Shown: piece after piece, positions 10,750-52,659 of the stretch
Position numbering within the stretch: the first letter of the stretch is position 1
How the letters are laid out: each line of letters begins with the position of its first letter
DNA from: an uncultured Pseudomonadota bacterium
GTDB lineage: Bacteria > Myxococcota_A > Polyangia > Fen-1088
Assembly (NCBI GenBank): GCA_963725905.1
Contig: CAVSAG010000003.1
Span: 449,546-513,545 of the forward strand
Direction of reading: 5' to 3'
DNA: 64,000 nucleotides
Program-made: the position numbers and the translations under genes
The notes under the pieces: generated by a model
What the model was told of the DNA's origin: nothing
Databases searched by the model: none
Seen by the model: only the letters and a program-made list of their open reading frames with translations

Positions 10750-10851
10750 ACAGCGCCAGCATGCGTGAACCGCCGCGAGAAGCCAACTCCCCCCTGCGGC
10801 CTGCTCTGCCCCTTCTTGACAGGCCGAATTCCGACGGGCTTTCATCAGTGG

Positions 10852-13210: not shown

Positions 13211-13241
13211 CGGGCCCGCGCGCTCGCGCGCCGGTCGCCCC

Positions 13242-29578: not shown

Positions 29579-29678
29579 GAGAGCAATCGGCGGACCACGA
29601 CGAAGGGCCGGCGATCAGCGCTGCGTCCTGGCGAATTGGCAAACCCCCCGTTTAAAAACGAACACCGCCCGACAGTGT

Positions 29679-29699
29679 CGCGCCGATCGCGACTACATC
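29679..29699. repeat. J-box repeat, truncated copy 1
   Basis: cgcgccgatcgcgactacatc is identical to the first 21 nt of the copy at 35007. The copy at 42561 starts at ccgatcgcgactacatc. Confidence 0.8.
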
Positions 29700-33555: not shown

Positions 33556-34977
33556 ATGCGCCGATTCAGTCTCCGTTTCCCCGTGGCATTTGCGATGGCG
33601 CTCGGCGCTTGCGGATCGTCCGGCGGAGGCGGCGCTGGTGGAAGCGCCGGCGGCGGAGCCGGGGGGACCGCGGTTGGCGCTGGCGGAGCAACGGGCGGCG
33701 CGAGTGGGCGCGCCGGTGGCGGAGCCGGGGGGACCACCGTTGGCACCGGTGGAACAGCGGGCGGCGCTGGTGCCGTCGCTGGTCATGGTGGCTCGGGCGG
33801 CGGCGGCGCGGGCGCCGGCGGCGGAACTGCTGGCTCCCCGGGTGGAACGACCGGTGGCGCGGGCGGTGGCGCGGGCGCGGCGGGCAAGGGGGGCGGGTCA
33901 GGTGGCGCGAGCGCCACGGGTGGCGGGGGCGCGGCGGGCAAGGGGGGCGCGTCGGGTGCCTCGGGAGGCGTGGGTGGCCGCAACACGGGCGCAGCGGGCG
34001 GCGCGGGCACGTCGGGGGCCGCTGGTTCGACAGGAAGCGCCGGCGCGCCGGGGACGGGTGGCACCTGGCCGCCAGCGCTCAAGGAATTCCCGCTCAGTCA
34101 CTCGGACGCCGCGGCCTGCAACTTGGTTGCGGGGCCCGACGGCAACATCTGGTTCGCCGAATATCACCGCAGCAACATCGGCCGCATCACGCCTGCGGGC
34201 GTGATCACCGAGTTTCCCACGCCCAAGATCAGCAGTGGCCCTTGCGAGATGACGGTCGGCTCGGACGGCGCCCTCTGGTACATCGAGGTGGCTGGGATCG
34301 GGAGAGTGACCGTCGCCGGATCGTTCACCGAGTATCCGACCACCTATCGACCGCGGTCCATCACCGCGGGGCCTGACGGCAATCTTTGGTTCATCGAGGG
34401 AACCGACGTGAACGACGTGGACGCCAACGCGATCGCCGCCATGTCGGTCGCGGGGACGATCGTGGCCGAATACCCGATCCCCACCGCCAATGCGGACGCG
34501 ACGAGCATCACCACCGGGCCCGACGGCAATCTCTGGTTCACCGAGGAGTACTTCACCGCGAACCAGCTCGGGCGCCTCACGCCCGCGGGCGTCTTCACGG
34601 AGTTTCCGCTGCCCATCGCCGAGGTGCAGTCGGATTGGATCATCGCCGGGCTCGGGCAGACGCTGCTGTACTCCGAGTCGGAGTTCATGCCGAACATCCA
34701 AGACTGGGTCGGCCAGATCACGACCGGCGGGGCGTATTCGCAGACGCTCGTCCCGACCATCCAGGGGGGCGTCGCACGCCTCGCGGTGGGGCCCGACGGC
34801 AACATCTGGTTCACGCAGTACCTCGGCAACAACGTCTACCGGATGACGTCCTCGGGGACCTTGTCGCTCGCGTTCAACCGGAACGCCACCTATCCGCAGG
34901 ACATCGTCGGCGGTCCGGACGGCAACATCTGGTTCGTCGAGTCCTACACCGGCGTGATCGCCCGGCTGACGCTCTGA
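33556..34977 (+). CDS. Lipoprotein with Vgb-like beta-propeller repeats
   Basis: 473 aa. MRRFSLRFPVAFAMALGAC, a ~170-aa Gly-rich linker, then about 7 repeats of GPDGN(I/L)WF.E.....IGR(I/L)TP.G..TE(F/Y)P. Confidence 0.8.
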   Translation: MRRFSLRFPVAFAMALGACGSSGGGGAGGSAGGGAGGTAVGAGGATGGASGRAGGGAGGTTVGTGGTAGGAGAVAGHGGSGGGGAGAGGGTAGSPGGTTGGAGGGAGAAGKGGGSGGASATGGGGAAGKGGASGASGGVGGRNTGAAGGAGTSGAAGSTGSAGAPGTGGTWPPALKEFPLSHSDAAACNLVAGPDGNIWFAEYHRSNIGRITPAGVITEFPTPKISSGPCEMTVGSDGALWYIEVAGIGRVTVAGSFTEYPTTYRPRSITAGPDGNLWFIEGTDVNDVDANAIAAMSVAGTIVAEYPIPTANADATSITTGPDGNLWFTEEYFTANQLGRLTPAGVFTEFPLPIAEVQSDWIIAGLGQTLLYSESEFMPNIQDWVGQITTGGAYSQTLVPTIQGGVARLAVGPDGNIWFTQYLGNNVYRMTSSGTLSLAFNRNATYPQDIVGGPDGNIWFVESYTGVIARLTL

Positions 34978-35006
34978 CCTGTGACCGCGAGCTGGACGAC
35001 GCGTGG

Positions 35007-35131
35007 CGCGCCGATCGCGACTACATCATCGCCGACACGAACGGCTCCGCCCGGAGGCGGCGCGGGCGGCTCTTGCCTCGACCGCTTTTCTGACTGCCGG
35101 GCGTTGATCATGAACGCGATGGCACCGGCGG
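35007..35131. repeat. Composite repeat: J-box copy 2 (35007-35051) followed by copy B of the 76-nt repeat (35053-35131)
   Basis: cgcgccgatcgcgactacatcatcgccgacacgaacggctccgcc matches 42561-42601 with 1 mismatch. The following ggaggcggcgcgggcggctcttgcctcgaccgcttttctgactgccgggcgttgatcatgaacgcgatggcaccggcgg matches 30424-30499. No intact ORF covers it. Confidence 0.85.
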
Positions 35132-36953: not shown

Positions 36954-36985
36954 AACGCGGAGACGCCACCCCGACGGCCTGGCGT

Positions 36986-37025
36986 GCGTCTGCCTGCTCG
37001 CCGACGCGGCGGCGCGCGCGCACGG
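36986..37025. repeat. R-family repeat, copy 1
   Basis: gcgtctgcctgctcgccgacgcggcggcgcgcgcgcacgg has 1 mismatch to 37800-37839. It sits 34 nt upstream of the 37059 lipoprotein gene. Confidence 0.8.
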
Positions 37026-37058: not shown

Positions 37059-37412
37059 ATGGTCTCGATGAGCTCGCGCACACTGGCGTTCGCGCTGCTC
37101 GTTGCGACGGCCGCCGGGTGCGCGCACGTGGAAGCGACTCGCCTGCGGATCCGCTGTTGCATCGAACGCGACAAGCCGGACGGCACCTGCGACGAAACCC
37201 GCAACGCTCCAGTCCTCCTGGACGGCGCGGCCGCCGGTGTGTGCCGGGACTGGGGAGGCGAGGGACGGATCACGACCGCCGAGGGCCACCAAATTCGCGT
37301 CAACTCGGGGGGCGCCGCTGACTCGTGCTGCATGTCGTCCGAGGTCTACGTCGAAGTCCCCGCCGGGAAACGAACCGACGTTCGCGTTTATCTTTCGCTG
37401 TACCCGGACTGA
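37059..37412 (+). CDS. Small Cys-rich lipoprotein (paralog of 41491..41838)
   Basis: ATG at 37059 inside the listed 36984..37412 ORF. MVSMSSRTLAFALLVATAAGCAH...RIRCC...VLLDGAAAGVC.DWGG...SCC...VEVPAGKRTDVRVYLSLYPD. About 45% identical by eye to the 41491 product. Confidence 0.7.
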   Translation: MVSMSSRTLAFALLVATAAGCAHVEATRLRIRCCIERDKPDGTCDETRNAPVLLDGAAAGVCRDWGGEGRITTAEGHQIRVNSGGAADSCCMSSEVYVEVPAGKRTDVRVYLSLYPD

Positions 37413-37767
37413 CGCCTCGATGGGTCTACAGCCGATGGTGACCCCCGCCGAGACCACCGCCGCCTTTCTGCTCGCGCGCGTGCGGGCGGCGCGCGGGGCG
37501 GCGTGGGACGAGGGGCGCGGTCGCGTGCCGGCGCCGGCGCCGCCGTCCGGCCCGGCGTTGCGGACGTTCGCCTCACTCGGGAACCCTGGGAGGGTTCCCG
37601 AACCCTCCCGCGACGGACGCCGCCGGGCAAAGCCCGGCTACGTCCACGCGCCGAGCGGCGCGTCCGCGGCGTCCCCGAGGCGGTGGTCCGCGGCCTGCCC
37701 GCCTGGGACCGCGGCGAGCGGACGATCGACGCTGGGACCTCCTCTTCGAGGTCCCCCCGGCGCGCCG

Positions 37768-37839
37768 GGTGCTCGCCCTCCAGGCGCGCGGGCGGCGCTG
37801 CGTCTGCCTGCTCGACGACGCGGCGGCGCGCGCGCACGG
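37768..37839. repeat. R-family repeat, copy 2 (full-length hybrid)
   Basis: gtgctcgccc..gcgcgcgggcggcgctgcgtctgcctgctcgacgacgcggcggcgcgcgcgcacgg. The 5' half matches copy 4 (41420-41455) and the 3' half matches copy 1. It ends 4 nt from the ParE stop codon. Confidence 0.8.
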
Positions 37840-37842
37840 ACC

Positions 37843-38130
37843 CTACTTCTTCGCGATGGGGCGCCTGGCGTGGTGATAGACGCGGACGATTCGCAGCGCT
37901 TCCGCTGATCGCTGGTAGTAGATTCGGAACGACGCCACCGGCCAGCTCCTCACGACGGCGCCCGATCGCAATTGCACCTCCGGTCCCTGGAACTCACCTC
38001 GCGCGAGCCTTTCGATCATCGAGAGCAGCTGATCCTTCAGCTCGGTCGCCGCGATCGGGTTACTCGCTGCGAGGTACTCGACGGCGGAACGAAGATCTTG
38101 TCGCGCGCGTGGGGAGAACCTGACCTTCAA
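37843..38130 (-). CDS. parE: Type II toxin, ParE/RelE family
   Basis: 95 aa. KVRFSPRARQDLRSAVEYLAASNPIAATELKDQLLSMIERLARGEF...SFRIYYQRSAEALRIVRVYHHARR. Its TTG start overlaps the antitoxin stop as TTGA. Confidence 0.85.
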   Translation of the reverse strand: MKVRFSPRARQDLRSAVEYLAASNPIAATELKDQLLSMIERLARGEFQGPEVQLRSGAVVRSWPVASFRIYYQRSAEALRIVRVYHHARRPIAKK

Positions 38131-38342
38131 CGGCGGACGATCGCGTCGAGGTCAGCGCGAACTTCATCCAGATCGGCGCCTTCGCCGCGATCCAACGCAG
38201 CGAGCGCCTCTTCCAAGCCCTGTTCCTGCTCGGGCGTGAGCGCCGGCACAGCGTCGAGCGATTCGATCACATAGCGGCCTTCGGGCAGCTTGCGAAGCTC
38301 GTCCGGCAAGTCCCGGCCGTTCCACTTGAGCACCGTCGCCAT
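38127..38342 (-). CDS. Putative ParD-like antitoxin
   Basis: ATG at 38342 inside the listed 38127..38393 ORF. 71 aa: MATVLKWNGRDLPDELRKLPEGRYVIESLDAVPALTPEQEQGLEEALAALDRGEGADLDEVRADLDAIVRR. Acidic, and located upstream of and overlapping the toxin gene. Confidence 0.7.
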   Translation of the reverse strand: MATVLKWNGRDLPDELRKLPEGRYVIESLDAVPALTPEQEQGLEEALAALDRGEGADLDEVRADLDAIVRR

Positions 38343-38779: not shown

Positions 38780-38816
38780 CATGCCTGCGGGGCGACGCGG
38801 CGGCGCGCGCGCACGG
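38780..38816. repeat. R-family repeat, copy 3
   Basis: catgcctgcggggcgacgcggcggcgcgcgcgcacgg lies about 20 nt 3' of the second ParE/RelE toxin gene. It shares gacgcggcggcgcgcgcgcacgg(g)gatcc with copy 1. Confidence 0.75.
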
Positions 38817-39362: not shown

Positions 39363-39603
39363 GGGGAGAGTCTACTGCACGGGCCGCGGGTCGACAGATC
39401 GCGACGCGCGCGAAGGGAGAATCGGACCTTCAACGGCGAACGATGGCGTTGAGGTCGGCCCGAACGTCCTCGAGGTCCGCGCCCTCGCCGCGATCGAGCG
39501 CGTCTACCCCGAGGGCGCCGATCGGAAAGAACGTGCTCTTCCCGCTTCCCGGCGGGCCCGCCACGACGATCATGACCGGGCGGGCGGGCTTCTTCGCGGC
39601 CAC
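39359..39603 (-). pseudogene. Chimeric TA wreckage: P-loop (zeta-like) toxin N-terminus fused to a ParD-like tail, followed by a 24-codon ParE 5' remnant
   Basis: My minus-strand translation of 39603..39430 is VAAKKPARPVMIVVAGPPGSGKSTFFPIGALGVDALDRGEGADLEDVRADLNAIVRR*. That is a Walker A N-terminus joined to the same 23-aa antitoxin tail seen at 38127 and 29903. Overlapping its stop (TTGA), LKVRFSLRARRDLSTRGPCSRLSP* (39433..39359) copies the first 13 codons of the 37843 ParE gene. Confidence 0.5.
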
Positions 39604-41330: not shown

Positions 41331-41419
41331 GGATTGATTTTACTTAGTAAACGCGGTTCTGGCGAGGCCATGGTACCGCGCCGGGACGGACTGCCCTTCG
41401 AGGCTCTGCCTTCGCCCCC

Positions 41420-41455
41420 GTGCTCGCCCGGGAAGCGCGCGGGCGGCGCTGCGTC
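41420..41455. repeat. R-family repeat, copy 4 (5' half only)
   Basis: gtgctcgcccgggaagcgcgcgggcggcgctgcgtc matches the 5' half of copy 2. It lies 36 nt upstream of the 41491 lipoprotein gene. Confidence 0.7.
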
Positions 41456-41490
41456 GCACCCCATGCAGGCGTTGGCTAAGATGGTCTTGG

Positions 41491-41838
41491 ATGCGTTTGC
41501 GCAGACTGGCTTTCGCGCTGCTCGTTGTCGGGGCGGCGGGGTGTGCGCACATGCAACCGACCCGCCTGTGGATCCGCTGCTGCGCGGGGGATGAACGCCC
41601 GGGCGGAGCCTGCGAAGAAGAGCAACGCTTCGCACAAGTCGTCCTGGACGGCACGGCGGCGGGTAAATGCGAGGACTGGGGAGGCGCCGGACGGTTGCTG
41701 GCGCCGGGGTGGCACCACATCGACGTCCAGGTTCGAGACGGTCGGGAAGGCTGTTGCTTCGCCGCCGACGTGGACCTCGAGGTCCCACCCGGCCAAACGA
41801 CCGCCTTTCGAGCCTACCTCGGTCGATTCCCCGATTGA
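41491..41838 (+). CDS. Small Cys-rich lipoprotein (paralog of 37059..37412)
   Basis: 115 aa. MRLRRLAFALLVVGAAGCAH...WIRCC...VVLDGTAAGKCEDWGG...GCC...LEVPPGQTTAFRAYLGRFPD. Confidence 0.7.
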   Translation: MRLRRLAFALLVVGAAGCAHMQPTRLWIRCCAGDERPGGACEEEQRFAQVVLDGTAAGKCEDWGGAGRLLAPGWHHIDVQVRDGREGCCFAADVDLEVPPGQTTAFRAYLGRFPD

Positions 41839-41911: not shown

Positions 41912-42590
41912 GTGCCTGTATCGACCACGATCAGAGCGGCAAATGCGGACGAGCTGGGGGTGATCGCGCGGCGGATGGACCGCGGGCGCGAAGGTGCCTT
42001 CGCCAGGGGGGGAGCGTGGCGCCGGGAAGCGGTTCGCGTGGGCGTCATTGGCGCCGTGGCGACGGTGGCTTCTGCGGTCCTGGTCCTCCGGACGCAGACA
42101 GGCGCCTTCGTCATCGGCGGCGCGCTCGGACTGACGTTCGTGGCCTTTGGTCTGCTGGGCTCGCGGCGTGCTAGCCGGTCGATCGAGGTTCGGCTGGCGG
42201 AATGGGGGCAGGCGCGCCATCACGGAATACCGGATCACGGCTGATCGGATCGTCACCGCCGCGGGCGAGGACGGAGACGTGTGGTGGCTGTTCCGGATCG
42301 ACCCTGGTGCTTGGCTGGCCTTCGAGCAAGGACAGTGGGATGGCGTCGACGGGTCGGCGCACCTGTGGTGCCGTGAGGCACGAATCGGCGTGGATGCTCA
42401 TCGCACGGTTGTTTCGATCGAGAGCACGGGCGACCCCATCGTGGTCGAACGACGCGACCTGCGACCACCGGACTTCGCGCCGACACCCGAGACACTGTTC
42501 TGGTCGCCGCCCGACGAGGCCGGCCCGTTACCCGTGCAGATCGCCGGTGATCCGACCGTCCCGATCGCGACTACATCATCGCCGACATGA
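41912..42590 (+). pseudogene. Two-TM membrane protein with a probable 1-nt insertion in a G5 run
   Basis: The listed ORF 41912..42244 has two TM helices (VGVIGAVATVASAVLVL, FVIGGALGLTFVAFGLL). The listed ORF 42147..42590 is only protein-like from ...AITEYRITADRIVTAAGEDGDVWWLFRIDP onward. The frames meet at the G5 run 42204-42208; G4 would give ...IEVRLAEWGRRAITEYRIT... The last 30 nt overlap J-box copy 3. Confidence 0.5.
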
Positions 42591-42730
42591 ACGGCTCCGC
42601 CGTGTTCCTGCTCGCCGCGCTGAAGATGCGGCTCGGCCTGGCGGCGCGGCGGTGTGGGGTCGGCGCGGAGGCGGCGGGACGGGGCGGGGGAGGCGGGGCG
42701 GGTGTTGGGGTGGTTCGAGGGGCTGGGGCG
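42561..42730. repeat. J-box copy 3 (42561-42601) plus G-rich cassette leader copy L (42651-42730)
   Basis: ccgatcgcgactacatcatcgccgacatgaacggctccgcc, followed 50 nt later by ggtgtggggtcggcgcggaggcggcgggacggggcgggggaggcggggcgggtgttggggtggttcgaggggctggggcg. The latter aligns with 46521-46597 at about 70-75% identity by eye, with the blocks in the same order. Confidence 0.7.
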
Positions 42731-42852
42731 CGGCTCGAAAACGGGAAACCCGCCGAGCCATTGATTCTTCCAGTAGGTTGGTAGTAATGTTGTGGTGAAC
42801 GTTGAGCTAGGAAGACGGGCCGCGCAATCGACATCCGCCACAGTAGGGAGAG

Positions 42853-44050
42853 ATGGCCGGCAAAGGATGAAACGTCCTAGAAGTTGGGAGGCTAAAAGCC
42901 GTCGCACCTGGGCAGGCGCTCGGCTACAGCCTCCAGTTCACCCGACTCACGGAGATGCTTCTTGCCGCGGCGCCAGGAACGTCGTGCACCTTGGAGGTTC
43001 TCGATGCGGAGATTGGCACCCATTGGCAGGTTGTCCTTGGGCAATCCAAGAGTGCGTTGACGGACAATCCAGTCGCCGACAGGGCACTTCCGCTCTGGAA
43101 GACGATCTCGACGGCTTGAAGGTTGCGAAGGAAGGCCTTGTCGAGCCTGAGCGCAAGACAACAATGTTCGAGCTCTATGTCTCGCGCCCGGTCAGTGGGA
43201 CGCTGATCGACGCATTCAACGCTGCCCGAACTCATGAGGACGCTGTGTTGGCGTTAGAGAAGGCGCGCCACGAACTCTGGGGCGACGGCCCCGATCTCTC
43301 TTCGCCCTTCCCTGTCGACCGCGATCGCCCCATACGTAAACGAGGTACTCGAAACCGAGGATTGTCTCCTCGCGCCGATCGTGATGGGCGACCTTACTGC
43401 GGCTCAGGGAGCCCTCAAGCCGATATCGAGGCGGCGATCCGCCAGGGGCCCGTGTCGGATGCGAAGGTCTTCACGATTGCGGACAAAATGTGCGGCTGGG
43501 TAAAACGACAGGTCGACAAACAGCTTGAGCGCGGGCTTCCGGCATTAGTTCAACGGGACGATTTTCATCGCGAGTATGTGGCGTTTGTTCGAAGTGTTGA
43601 CCGAGATATCATTCTTAGGAGCTTCGCAAAAAAGCCGTCTCAGTCCGATCTCCTGAGAGCACTTACCGGACCTATTTGTCCAGCAGCTCGACTGGATAGA
43701 CTTGGGGTTCGACGAGAAGTTGGAAGCTGTCAGTGACTATCTCAGATCTTCGATCGGGTCACCTGGAGCAAATCCGGTGATGTGCATGAAGACTCGTTCA
43801 TTGGCCTCAACGAGCAGCTGTGCCGCGTCTGGCGGAATAGCGCTCGTGCAGCCAGCCTAGAAGGCGCGGCGAGTTCAGACACCGAGCGTGAAAGGCGTGC
43901 ACTCGCTGTATGACCTACGAAACAAACGTGCAAGGCATGGAGGCCCCGGCGCACTTTGTTCCAGGATGTTTTCATCGGCTCGCCGACGAAGCGACCATTG
44001 GCTGGCATCCAGCGTATAAGGCCCGCTTGAAAGCTCGCTCCGCGTCATGA
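42853..44050 (+). pseudogene. ABC-3C-type effector gene (DUF4297/Cap4-like nuclease N-terminus plus ABC-3C C-terminal domain), multiply disrupted
   Basis: Conceptual translation pieced from three frames. MAGKG*NVLEVGRLKAVAPGQALGYSLQFTRLTEMLLAAAPGTSCTLEVLDAEIGTHWQVVLGQSKSALTDNPVADRALPLWK / LDGLKVAKEGLVEPERKTTMFELYVSRPVSGTLIDAFNAARTHEDAVLALEKARHELWG / LSTAIAPYVNEVLETEDCLLAPIVMGDLTAAQGALKPI / VFTIADKMCGWVKRQVDKQLERGLPALVQRDDFHREYVAFVRSVDRDIILRSFAKKPSQSDLL / HLPDLFVQQLDWIDLGFDEKLEAVSDYLRS / IFDRVTWSKSGDVHEDSFIGLNEQLCRVWRNSARAA / NVQGMEAPAHFVPGCFHRLADEATIGWHPAYKARL. Lesions: TGA at 42868, and frameshifts near 43100, 43290, 43425, 43658, 43745 and 43900. Confidence 0.55.
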
Positions 44051-44548
44051 CGGCGCTGGCGCGAGAGATACGGAATATCCAAAACCCCGCTCTCGGTGCC
44101 GGTCTAGTTTGGCGGTTCGTCTGCTGGCTACACGTCGGATCACCCGACCCGTGATCCGGCTCCGCTTCCCGCCTTGTTTCTTGTACTGCCCATTGTCTTG
44201 CACGAAGAGACTGACTCGTTCGTCCGGAGCACTCTACTGTCTTCCGGCCTTCGGTCATTCGCGGCGAAGTTCGGCACCTCCGCAAACTCAAAGCAAGATC
44301 TGCTGCTGGCGATTCACGCACGGATGCTTGCTCTGCGTCCGTTGACCCTCGCCTCAGTGCGCATCGCGCTCGCGACGCGACTCCTTCACCTTGAGACGGC
44401 CGCCGTGATTCCACTCTCGACGACCAAGGCCCAGGCCGGCATCCTCCCTGACACAAAACGGCTGATGAAGAGTGCGGAAAAACTTGGGGCGTGGTGCGGT
44501 CGCCTGACCTTGCACGAGATTGCGACAACCTTGAAAGTGAGATTGTGA
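44047..44548 (+). pseudogene. ABC-3C middle-component gene with one frameshift
   Basis: The ATG overlaps the upstream stop (ATGA). MTALAREIRNIQNPALGAGLVWRFVC, then a shift near 44122-44150, then GYTSDHPTRDPAPLPALFLVLPIVLHEETDSFVRSTLLSSGLRSFAAKFG...DLLLAIHARMLALRPLTLASVRIALATRLLHL... (listed ORF 44174..44548). The pattern matches what I recall for three-component ABC system middle components. Confidence 0.55.
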
Positions 44549-44551
44549 AAC

Positions 44552-46599
44552 GTGTTGTTCCAAATCAGAGAACTTGTCCTCTGGCCGCGCGACACAGCCT
44601 TCGCTCCGCGACGCGTGCCATTTGCGCCGGGGAAGGTCACGGTGATCAGCGGTGCTTCACGCACAGGAAAGTCTGCCGTCATACCAATAATCGACTATTG
44701 CTTGGCCTCCAGTGCCTGCCTGATCCCTGTCAAGACGATCCGTGAGGCCTCTGAGTGGTTTGGGATCGTGGTCAGCACCGCCAATGGCGATAAGTTGCTC
44801 GCGCGTCGGGAGCCCGGGAGTCAGCGGTCTACAGATGACAGGTTTCTCCTCGAGGCTCCCACAATTTCAGAGGTGCCTAGAGTCATCAGAAAGAACACGA
44901 GTGCGCCCGAGGTGCGCAGACTTCTCGATGAACTGGCAGGTCTCGAACCTGGACTTCGGTAGCGGTGAGACGCAGCAAGGCTTCGACGCGAGGCCGAGTT
45001 TCCCAGACCTAAGTGCCTTCACATTCCAGCCAGAATGTTGTCGCCAACCGAGAGATCCTGTTTTCAAAACGGATCGCTACGAACATCGTGAAAGCTTCGC
45101 AAGATATTCCCCTACGTTCTCGGCGCTATCACCCCGACTTTGCTGGCCGAACAACACGAGCTTAGGCGGCTGCAGACGGAATTGAAGCGAAAAGAACGAG
45201 AACTGCGCGATGCGCAGCAGATATCCGCGCAGTGGATTGCTGAGCTGAGAGCGCGGGTCAGCGAGGCGCGAGAGCTCGGCTTGCTGCCGATGGCGGCATC
45301 AGGTGATCTCGCTGAAGCGATGATCGTGCTCCTGAGGAAATTGTAACAGCGGACGGACGCGACTTTAGCCGTCAGTGCATCGACGATCTCGGACGCTGTT
45401 CGCGAACTGAATGCGCTCGACAATGAGGAGTCGAGTGTATCCCACGACCTAACAAGGCTTCGCTGGCGCCTTACGGAAATGAACCGCGTGCGCGAGAGCG
45501 TCACTAGCTATCGCGACGCTCTGCGGATACAGCGTGATCGACTTAGCTTGGCGGACTGGCTTGGAACCCACAGATCGGGCGATGAAAAGTGTCCGCTGTG
45601 TGGTGGAGGAACGGAGCCCAGCGAGAAAATGCTGCATGAACTCCAGGCATCCCTAGTGGAGCTTGCTCGTGAGGCGGGCGATACGTTCGAGGTTCCCGAA
45701 GTTTGACCGGGAATTCGAGAGGGTTCAGACGGACGTAAATGACGTCGCCGACAAGCTGAAGGCTGTGCAGATTCGCAAGCGAGCGCTGTCGCAGCGGTCG
45801 AAGGAGTAGATGATATGCAATACCAGGCGAAGAAGGTCGAGCGCTTCATAGGTAATCTCGAGAACGCGCTGACGTTGTACCGACGCCTCGGCGAGGACGG
45901 AGGGATCGCGACGGAGGTCGAGATGTTGCGCCTGCAGGTCGCGAAACTGACCGAAGAACTCCGTGCGCAAAACCTCGACGAACGGAAACGCCGCGCTTTG
46001 CGTATCGTCAACGGAAACGCTGGTCGCCTAATGCCGCTGCTGGATACCGAACGACCAACCGATCCTGTATCGCTGACATCAACGATCTGACGATCAGGGT
46101 AACGGGCACGGCGCGTGAAGACTACCTCTCCGAGATCGGCAGCGGATCAAATTGGCTCTCGTATCACCTCGCCATGAGTCTCGGCCTTCAGCAGTTTCTG
46201 ATCACCTTAGACCACAACGCAGTCCCGAGCTTTCTCGTGTTCGATCAGCCGAGTCAGGTCTATTTTCCTAAGAGAGCGGCGATTCGCGACTCGGAGGTGC
46301 CGGACGATCCGGGGCTCAGAGACGAAGACACCGAGGCCGTTCGGAAGGCATTCGAGGTAATGGGTCTGGTTGTAGGTAGTGCCAAGGGTCGACTCCAGAT
46401 CATTGTTCTCGACCATGCGCCTCGTGAAGTGTGGGGATCGGTTCCCAACGTGGTTGAGTTCGAGGAGTGGCGCGGCGGGAAGAAGCTCGTCCCTCCGGAG
46501 TGGATTCTAAGTAGCCGTCAGGCGTGGGCGGTAGCGGAGGCGGCCGGACGGGCTGGGGAGGCGGTGAGGTGTTGCGGCCGCTTGAGGGGTGAGTGCTAG
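44552..46599 (+). pseudogene. DUF3732-type ABC/SMC-like ATPase of an ABC-3C system, multiply disrupted
   Basis: N-terminus [65 protein letters not shown] (Walker A). Then FTFQP/QNVVANREILFSK/TDRYEHRE/KLRKIFPYVLGAITPTLLAEQHELRRLQTELKRKERELRDAQ. Coiled coil with KCPLCGG (~45589-45606). C-terminus DINDLTIRVTGTAREDYLSEIGSGSNWLSYHLAMSLGLQQFL...VPSFLVFDQPSQVYFP...LQIIVLDHAP. Lesions: frameshifts near 44930, 45030, 45068, 45093, 45705, 45808 and 46075, plus an in-frame TAA at 45344-45346. The native stop was probably near 46510; the ORF tail runs into leader copy M. Confidence 0.75.
46521..46597. repeat. G-rich cassette leader, copy M
   Basis: ggcgtgggcggtagcggaggcggccggacgggctggggaggcggtgaggtgttgcggccgcttgaggggtgagtgc. 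This is a high-GC patch inside the low-GC island, collinear with 42651-42730. Shared blocks: GCGGAGGCGGC.GGACGGG, GGGGAGGCGG, GGTGTTG.GG, GAGGGG.TG.G.GC. Confidence 0.7.
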
Positions 46600-46842
46600 A
46601 CAGGACCGTCAATGACACTTCGTAGGTATGACGGTAGACACTCGAGGGCGGCCATCTCCATGGGCTCAACCTCACGCCGGGCGGTGGGTGACCTGTGTTG
46701 TCTTGTGACCGGCGACGGTATACAGTTGTTCAGGTATGGTCCTCCGGCTTCTCGATGGCCTCCAGAACCGAAGAACGAAGCCCATCCAAAAATGCGCTTC
46801 GGTGAGCGGCAGGTAGAGTCATGCTCCGCTTATCTCGTCACC

Positions 46843-47727
46843 ATGAACATCTTCGACTCGCCGGCCCAAACGCTGGTGAATACGGTGAATACCGTCGGGA
46901 TCATACTGGGCAAGGGAATCGCCGCCGAATATAAGAAACGATACCCCGAGATGTTCCACCGGTACGCCGAGTTCTGCGCCAACGGAATGCTAACCACCGG
47001 GATGTTGTACCTCTATCGAAGCCCGAACAAGTGGGTGCTGAACTTCCCAACCAAGCGTCATTGGCGGAATCCTTCCAAAGTAGAATACATTGAGGAGGGA
47101 CTTAAGAAGTTCGTGGCCACCTGGGCTGAGTACGGCATCACGAGCATCTCGTTTCCACAGTTGGGTACAGGCAACGGCGGGCTGGACTGGGAAAAGGCCG
47201 TTCAGCCCCTGATGGAGCGACACCTAAAGGATCTGCCCCTATCGATATTCATCCACGTTGCGAAGACCCGCTCCGATTTGTCCCTGAGCAGAAGAACGCG
47301 GTCAGCCGGAAGCACTTGCTCAAACCGAGAGTGGACGTCAGTTTCAATGAGTTTTTTTCTGATTCCTCTCGGAACACGCGAGTGGCGTGGAGCCGGTGGC
47401 GAGCAATGAGACCGGACGAGAGGAGCCAGAACCTCTTCCGCGGCTCCGATGCTCCGATCGTCTGACCATAGCCGGGGAGGATTTGCGCTCTCTGTGGCTC
47501 TATTAACCTTGCGCGGGGCGTTGCGGATCGACGAATTCCCCGCCAGCCTCAAGAAGCATTCTGAGGTCGTAACTTCGTTACTTCTTCAGCTCGGCTACAT
47601 CCGTCCGGCTCAGTTCACGGGCGATAGCGCGCGCAACATGAGAGGAATCCGCTTCGCTCCTGCTGCCGATGAGTCTCCTGAGTCAACTCAGCCGATGACG
47701 CCCGAGCTTGAAGCCCTGGGCCGGTAA
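46843..47727 (+). pseudogene. DarG-like macrodomain protein with a C-terminal extension, disrupted by frameshifts
   Basis: From the ATG at 46843: MNIFDSPAQTLVNTVNTVGIILGKGIAAEYKKRYPEMFHRYAEFCANGMLTTGMLYLYRSPNKWVLNFPTKRHWRNPSKVEYIEEGLKKFVATWAEYGITSISFPQLGTGNGGLDWEKAVQPLMERHLKDLPLSIFIHV. These are the macrodomain hallmarks VNTVN..G..GKGIA, FPTKRHWR and GNGGLDW. The reading continues in other frames: EDPLRFVPEQKNAVSRKHLLKPRVDVSFNEFFSDS... and ...LTLRGALRIDEFPASLKKHSEVVTSLLLQLGYIRPAQF. Frameshifts near 47255, 47463 and 47505. Confidence 0.8.
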
Positions 47728-47773
47728 GCTTCGGCAGCATGTCTTTGGCTGGCAGAAAACGCTGCCAAAGGAC

Positions 47774-48609
47774 ATGGCCCAGTTCGTCTATCGCTTCGAC
47801 GAACTTAAGAATGCCATCAATATCTTAAACCAGGGGTACTGGCCCAGTTGAGCCGAGTGCGAGAGGCGGGGTGTTCCGTTCGTAGATTGCGCGAGTTCAA
47901 CCGTCATCGCGAACACCCTCGGCTCCCATAAGGACTTCGTCCGCATTCTATCCTCGAACCCCGACGCAGTACCACAACGAAGGGATCCGGCCCGTATCGT
48001 CCTATTCGAACCAGGGGGCTCACTGCGCTGTACCCGTGTTCATGATGTTCGATTTCGTGAACTTGCTCGCCGACGACCAGACGCAGTTTTCGATAGGAAA
48101 CATGGCGAGCGCTGGCGTTGAGTTCGGCGCCAGTGAGGCACTCTTCGCAGAGTATTCCATTCGACCTCGTATATCACCGAGGATCGACCTGGGGCCATCA
48201 GAATGCCGGTACGATTACGTTTCATCGCCACGCCGAAGTGCTGGTGCCCGTGAGCTTGTCCACAGAGGGAATCAAGCGGATCGTTTGCCGTTCGCATCCC
48301 GAACGCCGAACGCTCCTGTACGGGTTGAGCCCGGGAATCCGTGCGCGCTTTGAAAACGTAGTTAGCGTCGAGGCAAGTGAGTTTTTCGAGCGCGCTTGGG
48401 CGTTTGTTGAAAAGGTCGAGCCGGGAAACGGTTCTTTGAAATTTACCTTTCATGCTGCCGATTCTCTCCCATCACCCCTGCGTGTGACCTTCAGGTACGA
48501 GGACGGGACCCGTACGTGGGGCTGGCAAGAACACTGGCAACTTCGCAGGCCGTTGACTATGGACCTCTCGAAGGCCGGTCCTATGGGAGTGGCGACGCTC
48601 TGGATTTGA
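47774..48609 (+). pseudogene. DarT-like ADP-ribosyltransferase with a C-terminal extension, disrupted
   Basis: Pieced translation: MAQFVYRFDELKNAINILNQGYWPS*AECERRGVPFVDCASSTVIANTLGSHKDFVR / FYPRTPTQYHNEGIRPVSSYSNQGAHCAVPVFMMFDFVNLLADDQTQFSIGNMASAGVEFGASEALFAE / IPFDLVYHRGSTWGHQNAGTITFHRHAEVLVPVSLSTEGIKRIVCRSHPERRTLLYGL..., followed by ~100 aa more. The motif order (N-terminal ..NIL..G, F.PRTP..Y, FS.GN.AS, RHAEVLVP) parallels DarT/DUF4433 as I remember it. Lesions: in-frame TGA at 47849-47851 and frameshifts near 47945 and 48155. Confidence 0.5.
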
Positions 48610-48667
48610 AGGAGCCAAGGCGTTCCAAGACAAGGTTATTCTCACTGAAGCGCCACTCTGATCGCAG

Positions 48668-48700
48668 GCCGCCCCACCCTCGACACCCCGCCCCCTCCTC
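48668..48700. repeat. Possible inverted partial copy of the G-rich leader at the right island edge
   Basis: The reverse complement gaggagggggcggggtgtcgagggtggggcggc resembles ggggaggcggggcgggtgt...tcgaggggctggggcgcggc of copy L. It is short and low-complexity, so this is tentative. Confidence 0.3.
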
Positions 48701-48716
48701 TGCTAAACCCGCGCCC

Positions 48717-49913
48717 ATGAAACTCTTCGTCGAGGACCTCCCCGTCACTGGCAAGCGCGTCATCGTGCGCGTCGACTTCAACGTCCCCCTGAAGGACGGG
48801 AAGGTGGAGAGCGACAAGCGGCTCCGGGAGTCGCTGCCGACCATCGAGTACCTGCGCAAGAAAGAGGCGAAGGTGATCTTGATGTCGCACCTCGGGCGGC
48901 CCGACGGGAAGCGCGTGCCGGAGATGAGCCTGCGGCCCGTCGCCGATGCGCTCTCCGCGCTCCTCAACTCGCCCGTCGCCTTCGCCGAGGACTGCGTCGG
49001 GCCGGCCGCCGAGAAGGCCGTCTCCGCGCTCGCCCCCGGCGGCGTGCTCCTGCTCGAGAACCTCCGCTTTCACGCCGCCGAGGAGGAGAACGATCCCGCG
49101 TTTGCCAAGCAGCTCGCCGCGCTGGCCGACGTCTACGTGAACGACGCGTTCGGCAGCGCCCACCGCGCGCACGCGTCGACCGAGGGGATCACCAAGTTCG
49201 TGCCGCAGGCGGCGTCGGGGTTCCTCATGAAGAAGGAGCTCGACTACCTGGGCGAGGCGCTCGGGAATCCGAAGCGGCCGTTCGTCGCGGTGATCGGCGG
49301 GTCGAAGGTGTCGGGGAAGATCGACGTCATCAAGAACCTCCTGCCGCGCGTCGACAAGCTGCTGATCGGCGGCGGCATGACCTACACGTTCCTGAAGGCG
49401 CAGGGGCTGGAGGTCGGCAAGTCGATCGTGGAGAACGACAAGATCGAGCTCGCCAAGAGCCTGATGGCCGAGGCCGGCGACAAGCTGGTGCTGGGGACCG
49501 ACTTCGTGGCGACCGACAAGCTGGACTTCAAGGCGCGCACCGTGGGGGCGACCAAGGTCGTGACCAGGACGACCATCCCGGCCGACTGGGAGTGCGTCGA
49601 CATCGGGCCGGAGACCACGGCGGAGTTCACCAAGATCCTGCTCGGCGCCAAGACCGTCTGCTGGAACGGCCCGGTGGGCGTGTTCGAGATTGATGCCACC
49701 GCCAAGGGGACGATCGCCGTCGCCGAGGCGCTGGCCAAGGCGACCGCGGCCGGCGCGACCACCATCATCGGCGGCGGCGATTCGGCGTCTGCCGTGAAGA
49801 AGGCGGGCGTCGCCAGCAAGGTGTCGCACGTCTCGACCGGCGGCGGCGCGTCGCTGGAGTTCCTCGAGGGCAAGGTGCTCCCGGGCGTCGCGGCGCTCAG
49901 CGACAAGAAGTGA
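48717..49913 (+). CDS. pgk: Phosphoglycerate kinase
   Basis: ATG at 48717 inside the listed 48516..49913 ORF. 398 aa. VIVRVDFNVPL, LMSHLGRPDG, NDAFGSAHRAHAST, AVIGGSKVSGKI, LLIGGGMTYTF, WNGPVGVFE, STGGGASLEFLEG. Confidence 0.95.
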   Translation: MKLFVEDLPVTGKRVIVRVDFNVPLKDGKVESDKRLRESLPTIEYLRKKEAKVILMSHLGRPDGKRVPEMSLRPVADALSALLNSPVAFAEDCVGPAAEKAVSALAPGGVLLLENLRFHAAEEENDPAFAKQLAALADVYVNDAFGSAHRAHASTEGITKFVPQAASGFLMKKELDYLGEALGNPKRPFVAVIGGSKVSGKIDVIKNLLPRVDKLLIGGGMTYTFLKAQGLEVGKSIVENDKIELAKSLMAEAGDKLVLGTDFVATDKLDFKARTVGATKVVTRTTIPADWECVDIGPETTAEFTKILLGAKTVCWNGPVGVFEIDATAKGTIAVAEALAKATAAGATTIIGGGDSASAVKKAGVASKVSHVSTGGGASLEFLEGKVLPGVAALSDKK

Positions 49914-49948
49914 GCGACGGCCTGCGCGCGTAGGGAATTCGAACAGGG

Positions 49949-49965
49949 CGTCTCAAAACGAGACG
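49949..49965. terminator. Weak hairpin between the convergent pgk and 49953(-) genes
   Basis: cgtctc-aaaac-gagacg: a 6-bp stem with no U-tract, overlapping the stop codon of the minus-strand gene. Confidence 0.2.
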
Positions 49966-50630
49966 GTCGCACCGCCGAACGCGAAGCGCTGGGCCGGGTC
50001 GTAGCCCAGCTGCCATTGCAGCGGCTGCTTGCTCAGCCGATTGTTCTTGTTCACCAGGTCCGTCAGCTCCTGGTGGGTGGGCCAGCTGGCGTAGGCGACC
50101 AAGCCTCCGGCAATCATCGCGCCGACACCCAGAAAGCCGAACGCCGCCATCTTCTCGACGTTCCCCTGGTTGCAAGCGCCCCAGGCCGCGGAGTCCGCCG
50201 CGAAATTGGGGTCGGTGATCGAGGGTTGGGCGCAGTTGTCCGCGCTCGCCACGCCATAGATCACGGAAATTAGACCGACGGCGATTCCGCCCGCCAAGAC
50301 GACCTTCGCCCTGTCTTCCCGGGACTCGAGGCGCGCCGCATCCGGCGCCAGCTGCCCGTAGAGACCGGGATCGCTCGACCTGATGCTCTCCAGGTACGCC
50401 TGGAACCCGGTGACGCTGGCGTCGAAGCGCTGGTTCCCGGCCTGGAGGTGCTCGGGAATCACGACCGCGCTCTGATTCGAGGCGGCCTGCTGCTGGAGCA
50501 TCTGTTGATTCATATTCTGCTGGAGCAGTTGCTGTTGCAGGATCTGATCCTCCTGCGCTCGCCCGGCACGCGGCGCGAGGACCGCGGCAACCAGCAGGCT
50601 CACTCCCAACGACACTCGATATTTCGTCAT
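49953..50630 (-). CDS. Exported Gln-rich protein with C-terminal membrane segments (hypothetical)
   Basis: ATG at 50630 inside the listed 49953..50927 ORF. MTKYRVSLGVSLLVAAVLAPRAGRAQ signal, a QQQLLQQNMNQQMLQQQ stretch, two hydrophobic helices, and the ending ...AFGGATVSF. Confidence 0.65.
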   Translation of the reverse strand: MTKYRVSLGVSLLVAAVLAPRAGRAQEDQILQQQLLQQNMNQQMLQQQAASNQSAVVIPEHLQAGNQRFDASVTGFQAYLESIRSSDPGLYGQLAPDAARLESREDRAKVVLAGGIAVGLISVIYGVASADNCAQPSITDPNFAADSAAWGACNQGNVEKMAAFGFLGVGAMIAGGLVAYASWPTHQELTDLVNKNNRLSKQPLQWQLGYDPAQRFAFGGATVSF

Positions 50631-50740
50631 GACTCCTCCCGATCGACGCTCCGGGCAGAAACCACAGCAATCAGAGGGCCAACCACCCGCTGGCGTTTTT
50701 GGTGAGCACCCGCAGAAGGGAGGTCTAAGCTCGAACGACA

Positions 50741-51385
50741 ATGTATGGGCGGGTTGGTCGTTCGCTAGCTCTGACCGCGTTGCTCGTTGCTTGCTCGAGC
50801 GCGCCGTTGACGCCGACGGGTGGTGGGGGCTTCGGTGCGTTGGGTGGAAGAGGCGCGGGCGGGAGAGGCGCGGCCGGAGCCGGCGGTCGGATGGCCGGAG
50901 GCGGAGGCGCGGCGGGCCCGGGTGCACCCGTCGATGCTTCGGCCCCCGATCCCTGGACGTACAACGGGCAGCCCGTGACCAAGATCGACGTCAAAGGGTG
51001 TCGCCCTTACTACGGGTGCGACGTCTGCACCCTGACGCTGGCTGGCTCTGCGGACGCGGCCGTGCCCAACAACTATGGTTTGCCTTCGCAGCTGCTCTGC
51101 TCCCCGCCGCCGGCCGAGCCCGGCACGGTCGATTCGTCGTCGCTCGTGGACCAAGGCGGCCTTTCGCTGCCCGCGCTTTGTGGATTCTCCGCTCCGGATG
51201 GGGGCTCCTCCCCGACGATCACCGAGATCGTCCTTCAGCCGGACGTCGGCCCGTCGCCCCGCAGCGGATTCCCGAACGCCTACTGTCAGTTCCTGCCCGG
51301 CCCGACGATCGCCGAACCGGATGGATGCCTCTTCCTGAACCTCCAGGATGATTTCTGCGTCTCCGATTGCTCGCAATGTCCGTAG
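50741..51385 (+). CDS. Cys-rich lipoprotein (paralog of 56217..56993)
   Basis: 214 aa. LALTALLVACSS lipobox and a Gly linker. Motifs shared with the paralog: APVDAS.PDPW.Y.G.PVT.IDVK.C, AYCQFLP, CVSDCS.CP. Confidence 0.7.
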   Translation: MYGRVGRSLALTALLVACSSAPLTPTGGGGFGALGGRGAGGRGAAGAGGRMAGGGGAAGPGAPVDASAPDPWTYNGQPVTKIDVKGCRPYYGCDVCTLTLAGSADAAVPNNYGLPSQLLCSPPPAEPGTVDSSSLVDQGGLSLPALCGFSAPDGGSSPTITEIVLQPDVGPSPRSGFPNAYCQFLPGPTIAEPDGCLFLNLQDDFCVSDCSQCP

Positions 51386-51482
51386 GTGGGCACGCCGTGG
51401 CGAGGACGTTCCTCGTCCTCGAGTTGCATGTCCCGGACCTGGGGCCGGTCGCTTTCCCGCAGGCCCGAAGCGCGCCGGGTCG

Positions 51483-52136
51483 TCAGCGCTTCTGGTAGGT
51501 CTCGGCCCGATCGGAGTTCGGGCTGCTCGTGCCCGAGTTCTTGATGAAGATCGTGAACGTCGTGGGGGTCGCCGTGAAGGTAGCCGTCGAGGTGTCGAGC
51601 GACAAGGGCCCACCGTCGACGCCAAGGTCGATGCAGGTCACGGTCCTGCTGATGGTCGCCCCCGACACCGTGCGGGTGGTGGAGACGGTCACCGGGATTG
51701 GCAAGCTGGTCACCTCCTGGACGCACGCGCCCGCGATCTCCAGCGTTGCGTTGACCGGTGTCGACGAGCAAGCCGTCGTGCCGTAGTAGGTCTGCGAGGT
51801 GAGCGTGTACGTCCCGTCGACGATTGTTCCCCCTCTCCCGGTCGGAATCGCTCCGGCCACGCAGGTCGGCGTGACTGCCGCGCCGACGCTCGCGACCGTG
51901 TTGCAGGCCTGACCGGCGGGGACGTTGGCGCTGCAGCTCCCGGCGCCGGCGTCCGACGCTGGGCCGTTGCCGGCGTCCGATGCGGCGTCGCCAGCATCCG
52001 CGACGGTCTTGCTGGCGTCCGATGTTGGGCCGTTGCCGGCGTCCGATGCGGCCTGGGGTGACCCGCAAGCGGCCCCAGCACAGAGGTACGCGATGGCCGC
52101 AACCCAAAGACAGCTCGCCCCGTATCGATAAGTCAT
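51483..52136 (-). CDS. Lipoprotein (paralog of 54820..55719)
   Basis: ATG at 52136 inside the listed 51483..52286 ORF. MTYRYGASCLWVAAIAYLCAGAACGS. DAG/DAS repeats. GGTIVDGTYTLTSQTYYG and the C-terminal ...FTATPTTFTIFIKNSG are shared with the paralog (GGTIVDGTYYLSESISYTG). Confidence 0.7.
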   Translation of the reverse strand: MTYRYGASCLWVAAIAYLCAGAACGSPQAASDAGNGPTSDASKTVADAGDAASDAGNGPASDAGAGSCSANVPAGQACNTVASVGAAVTPTCVAGAIPTGRGGTIVDGTYTLTSQTYYGTTACSSTPVNATLEIAGACVQEVTSLPIPVTVSTTRTVSGATISRTVTCIDLGVDGGPLSLDTSTATFTATPTTFTIFIKNSGTSSPNSDRAETYQKR

Positions 52137-52194
52137 GTGTGAGAGCGTACGCCGAAGCTCCACTGCCGCATAAATCGGGCGGCGGACGTCGGAG

Positions 52195-52659
52195 TTGTGG
52201 AATGCTTGCGCAATGGTCGATCGCCGCGCGTTCTCGGTCGCCGTCTTCTGCCGCAACGGCGGGGAGATCCTGCTCGTGCGCCACAAGCGCCTCGAGCTTT
52301 GGTTGCCGGTGGGGGGCGAGATCGAGCCGGGCGAGACGCCGCTCGAGGCCGCGCGCCGCGAGCTCCGCGAGGAGACCGGCCTCGAGGGCGTCTTCCCGAC
52401 CGTCTATCCGGCCGGCCAGGCGGCCGGCTTTGGCGTCGACGGCACGCCGCCCGGCCTCATCGGCTACGAGGAGCACCCGGCCGGCAGCAAGGGGCTGCAC
52501 CTGAACTTCGCGTTCGTCGCCGACGTCGCAAGTCGCGCGCTCGTTGCCTGCGACGAGTACACCGCCGTCCGTTGGGTCGGCGATCCCGTCGACGTCGAGT
52601 GCCCGCTCAACGTCCGCCAGCTGGTCCGCCTCGCGCTTGCCGCGGGTCGACCGGGATAA
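52195..52659 (+). CDS. NUDIX hydrolase
   Basis: 154 aa. Nudix box GGEIEPGETPLEAARRELREETGL. The start may be the Met at 52213. Confidence 0.85.
   Translation: MWNACAMVDRRAFSVAVFCRNGGEILLVRHKRLELWLPVGGEIEPGETPLEAARRELREETGLEGVFPTVYPAGQAAGFGVDGTPPGLIGYEEHPAGSKGLHLNFAFVADVASRALVACDEYTAVRWVGDPVDVECPLNVRQLVRLALAAGRPG

Follow-up and report, generated by a model that had tools for sequence, protein, structure and literature searches.

Core defense hotspots have been described between conserved genes in Pseudomonas aeruginosa, as cDHS1 and cDHS2 (PMC10250203), and in E. coli, as integration hotspots (PMC10121019). The locus considered here lies in a window of 64,000 nucleotides, which is the whole stretch of DNA that was analyzed. 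It is an interval between a conserved Polyangia gene of about 250 amino acids and unknown function, which was named JP, and pgk, encoding phosphoglycerate kinase (48717-49913, plus strand). The latter is the right core flank and has 79-94% amino acid identity to the loci of Polyangia metagenome-assembled genomes. JP is found upstream of pgk in L002, L093, L099, L105, and L109 as well as in the window. The genes between the two differ. A 2-Hacid_dh dehydrogenase gene is present in L002, a lipoprotein gene in L109, a 1316-amino acid NACHT-like ORF in L105, and Lamassu and DarTG in the window. As in the core defense hotspots (PMC10250203, PMC10121019), constant core genes thus flank varied cargo that includes defense systems across relatives, namely Lamassu, DarTG, and a NACHT-like STAND protein. 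Unlike in those hotspots, the cargo is small (0.9-5.9 kb), has no recognizable mobile-element genes, and is fully pseudogenized, and the left flank gene JP is itself fragmented and partly duplicated. In addition, the interval is known here from a handful of metagenomic relatives and not from a population sample. The window's island spans 5.9 kb of low-GC DNA (42731-48672). Its borders were set by comparison with L105, whose homology ends at about 42728-42730 and returns at 48673; homology to L002 returns at 48679. The interval is marked as a small variable, defense-bearing spot in Polyangia with exact borders at 42731 and 48672. To our knowledge, defense hotspots have hardly been described in this group. 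Most likely, recombination at this variable spot 5' of pgk has left an ordinary scar.

The island possesses two blocks of genes, all on the plus strand. The first corresponds to Lamassu (LmuA-LmuC-LmuB/ABC-3C), with every component matched by HMM and homology and in the canonical order. An LmuA-like effector pseudogene of the ABC-3C CTD7 type (42847-44040) was identified by tblastn with LmuA of L082, whose matches run through frames 1, 3, and 2; its residue 18 falls at 42898, and the start is projected to about 42847. LmuC, or ABC-3C middle component MC3 (44047-44548; Pfam PF20131, E=6e-22; PADLOC LmuC), has one frameshift near 44120, and its tblastn match is split over two frames. The LmuB pseudogene (44552-46509), a DUF3732 SMC-like ATPase, was followed by frame translation. 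It is interrupted by several stops in frame and, near 46075, by a frameshift, and the PADLOC LmuB profile is covered in full by five ORF pieces. Its natural end (…PPEWI-) is at about 46506-46509, while intact 657-amino acid homologues finish ...PPNWIS. Unlike in intact Lamassu, all three genes are interrupted by stops and/or frameshifts. No close DNA relative of this block was found, the best match being 63-64% at the amino acid level, and we infer its true ends for this reason.

The second block is a DarG-DarT module (46690-48668), which over 1988 nt is 83.5% identical in nucleotides to L083/L084; identity to L081 is 86%. The DarG macro-domain antitoxin begins at 46843 (PADLOC, E=4.5e-54). 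The DarT ADP-ribosyltransferase (PF14487; about 47774-48658) has tblastn matches in three frames; intact relatives have 293-299 amino acids. The pair has the canonical order of DarTG defense and is homologous to intact pairs; unlike in these, both genes are split across frames. Because stops or frameshifts are present in every gene, neither Lamassu nor DarTG can be active here. Beyond the variable spot, all genes of the locus are dead and no function is evident.

The first-pass annotation had placed the same G-rich leader ahead of both blocks and considered it a reusable cassette head. This is not supported, as the repeat is coding DNA of JP, the core gene at the flank, for which 567 homologues were found. 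The JP tail reads ...RRRRDGAGEAGRVLGWFEG, and the closest JP protein tails are ...AARRCGVGAEAAVDVLL...RRRRDGAGEGGRVVGWFE. Just before the island is a JP 3' fragment of about codons 194-233 (42561-42677, plus strand) with 99.1% nucleotide identity to the intact JP of L086/L131. It includes the J-box (DYIIADMNGSAVFLLAALK...) of the first-pass annotation, which corresponds to JP codons of about 194-207, and its protein tail matches P0337 up to ...RRCGVGAEAA. The first copy of the repeat (copy 1; 42650-42730, plus strand) was identified by global alignment to L086 as the JP tail, …DGAGEAGRVLGWFEG in the JP frame. It is joined out of frame via a 74-nt internal deletion at 42677/42678. In the alignment this gap is exact and lies between GGCGGCGG microrepeats; it is common to L105, and beyond it the JP tail of the window is about 90% identical to that of L086. 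Deletions of this microrepeat type recur: the window has lost 74 nt and L105 74+11 nt, and L087 shows another junction. Copy 1 is the last conserved flank ahead of the island. By its alignment, it is the damaged 3' coding end of the resident JP and not a leader. The left end of the island follows as a spacer ahead of the LmuA remnant (42731-42846), in which GC falls to 53% after 42765. It holds the GTAGGTTGGTAG word and has no homologue in any fetched locus.

The second copy (copy 2; 46520-46597, plus strand) is an isolated JP-tail relic of about codons 243-268 with four small indels. It starts about 10 nt past the natural LmuB stop and ends 93 nt ahead of the homology of the DarG-DarT module. 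The 92-nt spacer in between (46598-46689), of unknown origin, is outside the module homology and has no match in any fetched locus. Collinear identity of 70-75% between the two copies had been claimed by eye, and it holds: local alignment of 42650-42722 with 46520-46589 gives about 80% identity over 73 columns. In a blastn search within the window, the core of the pair is 58 nt with 81% identity (E=5e-8). On one strand, G makes up 57-67% of the element. Copy 2 was also correctly seen as a high-GC patch in low-GC DNA, with 75% GC and 57% G against 55-61% GC around it. The GTAGGT..GGTAG words noted downstream of the copies are present, but these flanks score 14 against a shuffle mean of 15, which is chance level.

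A chance likeness of two G-rich, low-complexity patches was considered, since the pair was chosen by eye from many possible ones. Across the window there are 78 G-rich 90-nt windows and 17 motifs of the G4 type, and JP tails score up to 43-50 against unrelated patches. The score of 59 between the copies, however, was reached by none of 2000 dinucleotide-preserving shuffles (mean 24.3 +/- 4.3, maximum 49), which was the comparison proposed in the first-pass annotation. A Gumbel fit to the shuffle mean and standard deviation, calculated by hand, gives a probability of about 2e-5 per pair, or about 0.01-0.05 after a few hundred to 3000 possible pairs. Copies 1 and 2 are also reciprocal best matches among the 78 G-rich windows, with next best scores of 43 and 39. 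When 167 other loci (1.8 Mb) were searched with copy 2, it matched only JP tails, five times: those of L105, L087/L089, and L086/L131 (E 2e-5 to 2e-4). Its scores against single orthologous JP tails barely exceed those of the window's G-rich background (51 vs 50 for L087, 46 vs 42 for L086). Chance is therefore a very unlikely source of the pair, and copy 2 is, by these matches, a JP-tail relic of about 75 nt inside the island. A striking "shared leader" can thus be a stranded fragment of a neighboring gene. For this reason, a repeat at an island junction should first be checked against the core genes that flank the site in relatives, and only then be read as a regulatory element or attachment site.

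A functional shared promoter, leader RNA, or G-quadruplex regulator that drives each block would place each copy 5' of the next block on the same strand. This is the arrangement found, with 117 nt to the projected LmuA start and 246 nt to DarG, and copy 1 holds a canonical G4 motif (42676-42710). Both blocks begin about 90-120 nt 3' of a copy. By its position after the LmuB stop, however, copy 2 is equally the tail of the first cassette and the head of the second, and most G-runs are gone from it. No promoter-like sites, sigma-70-like ones included, were found in 42400-48800, and Rfam gave 0 matches at E<=1. Folding z-scores of +0.9 and -0.6 are no better than shuffles, with no structure common to the copies. 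The DarG-DarT module brings its own conserved 150-nt upstream region, and in four other contexts where this module occurs (L081, L083, L084, and L085) the G-rich element is absent. All downstream genes are pseudogenes. A regulatory role is thus extremely unlikely, and we infer that the repeat does not now serve as a leader or promoter.

The repeat is best read as a recombination footprint at one site. Part of the JP tail was probably duplicated when the Lamassu block, which the two copies bracket as a direct repeat, recombined in. The block may have entered by recombination inside the JP tail, either through a single (Campbell-type) crossover with a circular intermediate carrying JP-tail homology or through an exchange, unequal or illegitimate, between JP copies in tandem. 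The tail, with its (GGC)n/G-run sequence, would be prone to slippage and breaks that favor such events, and both copies would afterwards have decayed along with the cassette genes. An identity of only about 80% between the copies excludes a recent duplication in situ. An intermediate that is empty or has a single copy, with the JP tail followed by DarG-DarT and no Lamassu, was not found. In the window JP restarts at about codon 243. L087 twice shows the JP end, then a cassette, and then a restart of JP upstream, at codons 175 and 4. Such variation would be less expected of a fixed att core than of exchange driven by homology. The suggestion of the first-pass annotation that two cassettes were inserted in tandem at a similar kind of site stands in part, in that the repeat does lie at the junctions of acquired blocks; it does not do so as a reusable head.

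The attL/attR repeats of genomic islands and Campbell-type integration offer a close comparison. Here as well, a block is bracketed by a direct repeat at the boundary of core and foreign DNA, and one copy is the 3' end of the neighboring chromosomal gene. A site-specific integrase, with its gene lost or outside the window, could have used the JP tail as its attachment site, and the Lamassu block would then be an integrative element whose attP resembles the JP 3' end. The repeated filling of the JP-pgk interval by differing cargo in relatives agrees with this, as do three independent junctions that stop at one JP position, ...TTCGAGGGG. That shared end point is, however, where the conserved JP coding sequence stops. 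Pfam and PADLOC on all island ORFs gave only Lamassu and DarG components, and no integrase or recombinase domain was found in these or in about 20 other ORFs of the window; the absence reported earlier for the whole window holds to this extent. Unlike in attL/attR-type islands, the target is a G-rich protein-gene tail and not a tRNA gene, the extent of the duplication varies among related loci (restarts at codons 243, 175, and 4 in quite different parts of JP), and only one of the two blocks is bracketed. The longest identical block between the copies, which are only about 80% identical, is 11 nt, GCGGAGGCGGC, a motif common in this DNA (24 near-matches vs 13.8 expected), although a longer shared core may have been lost through decay after the insertion. 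The sequence does not recur as a second copy in the L081, L083, L084, and L085 relatives or in the L105 island, which differs from that of the window and has a single resident JP tail only, and a metagenome pattern scan for the repeat gave 0 hits. An integrase origin is thus unlikely. Integron cassette arrays (attC; CALINs) also have a short repeat between co-oriented blocks with no adjacent integrase. The element here, unlike attC, has no GTTRRRY/RYYYAAC cores (GTTGGGG and GTTGCGG do not fit GTTRRRY), and it cannot fold as an attC hairpin, since it consists of 57-67% G and lacks a complementary arm. Integron cassettes also differ from the blocks here, each of which is an operon of several genes with an upstream region of its own. 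The repeat belongs to the coding sequence of a gene on the flank, and no intI integrase or attI was found among the island ORFs and the about 20 other window ORFs.

There is also no third copy on the pgk side. An inverted look-alike noted earlier at 48668-48700 is at chance level (its score against the two copies is equalled or exceeded in 266 and 590 of 1000 shuffles) and was rejected. It corresponds to a native C-rich box just 5' of pgk (48673-48716, plus strand; CTCGACA.CCCGCCCCCTC..TGCTAAACC), which is kept in L002, L093, L105, and L109. This box and the JP tail both score as G4 motifs, each within about 40 nt of an island border. It is conceivable, if quite unlikely, that the G-run/(GGC)n tail of JP and the C-rich box, in the opposite orientation, form a fragile, recombination-prone landing pad. 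Defense cassettes that lack a recombinase of their own would then be captured time and again, with a part of the JP tail duplicated on each occasion. The JP tail would in that case be a real, reused attachment sequence for cassette capture driven by the host and not by an integrase in Polyangia.

Partial duplication during entry of the Lamassu block has one further competitor, which was judged somewhat unlikely. Copy 2 could be the remnant of a once complete second JP paralogue 5' of DarG-DarT, that lost its 5' part, by deletion or overwriting, on the arrival of Lamassu, with no duplication at insertion. The close relative L087 does have tandem full JP copies that are parted by small cassettes, and at least 8 other JP fragments are present in the window between 29.7 and 42.7 kb. 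Copy 2 aligns to the intact L087 tail without the 74-nt gap and as well as it does to copy 1, and its distance from all JP tails is much the same (16-19%). This origin requires an extra JP copy exactly here and a deletion that ended about 10 nt from the LmuB stop. Both GAGGGG and GGTGTTG occur in copy 1 as well as in copy 2, in line with the origin of copy 2 from a JP tail. The GGTGTTG of copy 2 was found only in copy 1 among the JP tails compared, which also speaks against a separate paralogue. The present data do not separate such a remnant from partial duplication. The other fragments (all on the plus strand where assigned) include a JP 5' relic of codons 5-109 (37438-37838; 90-97% identity to the L086 JP), split at 37576-37657 by a double-hairpin element of about 80 nt. 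With the L086 JP as blastn query, a relic of about codons 71-97 (41378-41455) was located beside a ParE/antitoxin pair, and further small relics at 29675-29699, 36964-37024, and 38782-38815. The relic at 34983-35069 holds a second J-box copy (codons 185-207; 95.7% identity to L086 1844-1912) fused directly to R-E-A-A-R-A codons, and a homologous relic is present at L087 12025-12120. The CGGAGGCGGCGCGGGCGG core that follows 35051 had been described as related to the two copies. It does belong to the same gene, but to a different part of it, the R-E-A-A-R-A codons. The relic holding CGGAGGCGGCGCGGGCGG is repeated at 30424-30499.

The two G-rich stretches described in the first-pass annotation as heads of two island cassettes (copy 1, 42650-42730, and copy 2, 46520-46597) do align collinearly. 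The local alignment of 42650-42722 with 46520-46589 covers 73 columns and scores 59, above all of 2000 dinucleotide-preserving shuffles (24.3 +/- 4.3, maximum 49). Within the window, blastn aligns a 58-nt core of the pair with 81% identity (E=5e-8). When 78 G-rich windows of 90 nt are compared, each copy has the other as its best match, ahead of next-best scores of 43 and 39. A Gumbel fit to the shuffle values, calculated by hand, gives about 2e-5 per pair, or about 0.01-0.05 when the pairs that a reader could choose are allowed for. Thus, the core observation of a repeat stands. The likenesses reported around it were not upheld. Downstream of the copies, where the GTAGGT..GGTAG words were supposed to be shared, the alignment does not surpass that of shuffles, and the similarity of the copies to the inverted look-alike at the right island edge (48668-48700) is at chance level. 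A shared promoter or leader had also been proposed; a sigma-70 promoter scan, an Rfam search and RNA folding were all negative and give no support to such a role. Readings as attC sites or transposon ends were ruled out by sequence.

The window has a GC content of about 70%, and a low-GC stretch (57-60%) lies directly upstream of pgk (48717-49913). The protein encoded by pgk is 79-94% identical to those of Polyangia (Myxococcota) MAGs. The match between the window and L105, a 49-kb metagenomic contig, ends at about 42728-42730 and picks up again at 48673, and this break gives the borders of the island. For L002, the locus with the nearest pgk relative, the match picks up again at 48679. The C-rich box upstream of pgk (48673-48716) is kept in L002, L093, L105, and L109. 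It is native sequence and not an inverted copy of the G-rich element.

In L002, the J-box (codons ~194-207) falls within a 247-aa ORF upstream of pgk, the conserved Polyangia gene termed JP. There are 567 JP homologues in soil metagenomes. JP has no sequence match in Pfam, NCBIfam or PDB, and its AlphaFold model (pLDDT 77.6) has no Foldseek match in PDB (best E=0.58). The closest JP proteins end in ...DMNGSAVFLLAALKMRLGLAARRCGVGAEAAVDVLLRAMGLPEEVREAARAVRRRRDGAGEGGRVVGWFE..., and the window agrees with this tail to ...GAEAA and then runs on one frame over as DGAGEAGRVLGWFEG. The frame changes because of a gap relative to the intact JP of L086. Positions 42561-42677 are 99% identical to that gene; next comes a gap of exactly 74 nt, set between GGCGGCGG microrepeats, and then the tail at ~90% identity. 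By this alignment, copy 1 is the 3' coding end of JP itself. The JP of L105 has the same 74-nt gap and lacks 11 nt more besides. Truncation of JP by the island at ~42655 was ruled out, since JP runs on in another frame past the deletion.

Copy 2 was compared with all 167 fetched loci (1.8 Mb), and its matches are confined to JP tails, those of L105, L087/L089, and L086/L131. Its GGTGTTG is common only to copy 1. Judged from these matches, copy 2 is a relic of the JP tail. Against single orthologous tails it ranks second in the window, barely above unrelated G-rich patches, which calls for caution with this reading. The idea that copy 2 necessarily had the 74-nt deletion of copy 1 was dropped, as its alignment with the intact L087 tail is just as good. 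A stringent 38-base pattern fitting both copies gave 0 matches in the metagenome contigs scanned, and neither copy had a blastn match in the first 80 pgk loci.

The first block of the island is a Lamassu/ABC-3C operon that encodes an LmuA-like effector, LmuC (Pfam MC3, E=6e-22), and LmuB (DUF3732). Stops or frameshifts break all three genes, and the PADLOC match to LmuB is spread over five ORF pieces. The start of LmuA is projected to ~42847. For LmuB, identity to the best relatives reaches just 63-64%. Those proteins have 657 aa and a ...PPNWIS terminus, which places the natural end of LmuB in the window at ~46506-46509, about 10 nt ahead of copy 2.

The second block is a DarG-DarT pair. Positions 46690-48668 are 83.5% identical to L083/L084 over 1988 nt and 86% identical to L081. 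Intact relatives have a 293-299-aa DarG followed by DarT (PF14487), and the window's two genes are each distributed over more than one frame. The homology of the module starts 93 nt downstream of copy 2 and takes in the module's own conserved 150-nt upstream region. Elsewhere its upstream neighbor is a tRNA 3' end (L083, also L085) or a gene fragment (L081), and the G-rich element is absent ahead of DarG-DarT in all four other contexts examined. The neighbors of the L081 macro gene were tried as a syntenic comparator, and none maps to the window. In L083 (1-35) and L085 (~600-660), a tRNA-like 3' end (GGTTCAAATCC.../GGGTTCGAGTCCC...CCA) lies 140-290 nt upstream of the intact pair. This is a classical integration position, unlike the place of the module in the window. 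No tRNA gene is found within the 64-kb window.

Part of the JP tail is present as a direct duplication whose two copies, each at a junction, flank the Lamassu block. The block would have entered by recombination inside the JP tail. A circular intermediate bearing JP-tail homology could have integrated by a single crossover, or JP copies could have undergone unequal or illegitimate exchange. The tail could instead be a dedicated att site. Against this, the codon at which JP restarts varies among relatives, no recombinase is found among the ORFs tested, and there is no third copy on the pgk side. In L087, the pattern of a JP end, a cassette and JP restarting at an upstream codon occurs twice, at codons 175 and 4; in the window JP restarts at codon ~243.

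GGC and G-run repeats abound in the JP tail, which shows independent slippage deletions in three genomes. There are 17 canonical G4 motifs in the window, two of them within ~40 nt of the island borders and on opposite strands: 42676-42710 (+), in copy 1 and the native JP tail, and 48672-48695 (-), in the native 5' box of pgk. Their placement may be a coincidence or a fragile-site effect. Together, the repeats, deletions and motifs make it plausible that a break-prone flank would contribute to the recombination. The divergence between the copies (~20%, with four indels) and the heavy decay of the cassette genes fit an old event. The repeat is real, a relic of the 3' end of the flanking gene, and it marks a recombination junction. 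The defence island around it is small and decayed and occupies a variable site between JP and pgk. The explanation is ordinary, and the repeat is a new instance of an already known kind of structure.

The interval between JP and pgk is variable among relatives. In L109 it contains a lipoprotein gene, and in L099 it is similarly short (~0.9 kb). L002/L093 carry a 2-hydroxyacid dehydrogenase here, L105 has a single NACHT-like ORF of 1316 aa, and the window has Lamassu and DarG-DarT. Defence cargo between conserved core genes agrees with the published picture (PMC10250203, PMC10121019). The opposite flank of pgk may be a second variable spot. A segment of ~2.3 kb directly downstream of pgk (49914-52215), encoding a secreted or membrane-like 324-aa ORF without a clear family, is missing from L002, L003, L005, L007, L009, and L010, where the match to 52215-52645 comes right after pgk. 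L105 has a different insert of ~3 kb at the same place.

From 29.7 to 42.7 kb, ParE/antitoxin pairs, lipoprotein paralogues and other small genes are interspersed with at least eight further JP fragments. The supposedly related core after 35051 (CGGAGGCGGCGCGGGCGG) is a different piece of JP, codons R-E-A-A-R-A, fused to the J-box via another internal deletion. A homologous relic is present in L087. Of 82 loci, 80 have one JP copy; extra copies or fragments are limited to the closest relatives of the window, L086 and L087. A transposase or recombinase function for JP, which could account for the many fragments, was rejected on this copy number and on the lack of database matches. In 3.4 kb, L087 (JGI Ga0209060_10003372; 5702-5705 region and 9379-13438) has two full JP copies as well as scrambled JP relics. 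Immediately upstream of the JP copies is a ParE/antitoxin pair, and a SIR2_2 and nSTAND1/TPR gene pair is nearby, so the JP neighborhood gathers defence-like genes in that genome too.

The flanking core genes meet a filter of GC3 >= 0.82, and almost no ORF from ~26.8 to 48.7 kb (22 kb) does. This stretch is a patchwork of ParE/antitoxin pairs, JP fragments and short duplicated segments (28165-28442 = 32512-32789; 37059-37268 = 41481-41694; 38084-38198 = 39386-39501 = 29903-29974). All of it seems to form a single large accessory region, of which the 6-kb island is just one part. The gene at 33556-34977 codes for a Vgb-lyase-like beta-propeller protein of 473 aa; it has six repeats of ~41 nt (GPDGNIWF motif), and its 3' end overlaps a JP relic starting at ~34938-34983. 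An ~80-nt element with two strong hairpins (GGGAACCCTGGGAGGGTTCCC ... GACGGAC..GGGCAAAGCCC..GTCCAC) is found once in the window (37576-37657) and once in the 87 loci compared (L086, 1624-1702). The L086 element is in frame within an otherwise intact JP (P0337 residues 110-137) and is missing from most JP homologues. The window copy is 88.6% identical and sits at a different JP position, and the element looks like a small MITE/REP-like insertion.
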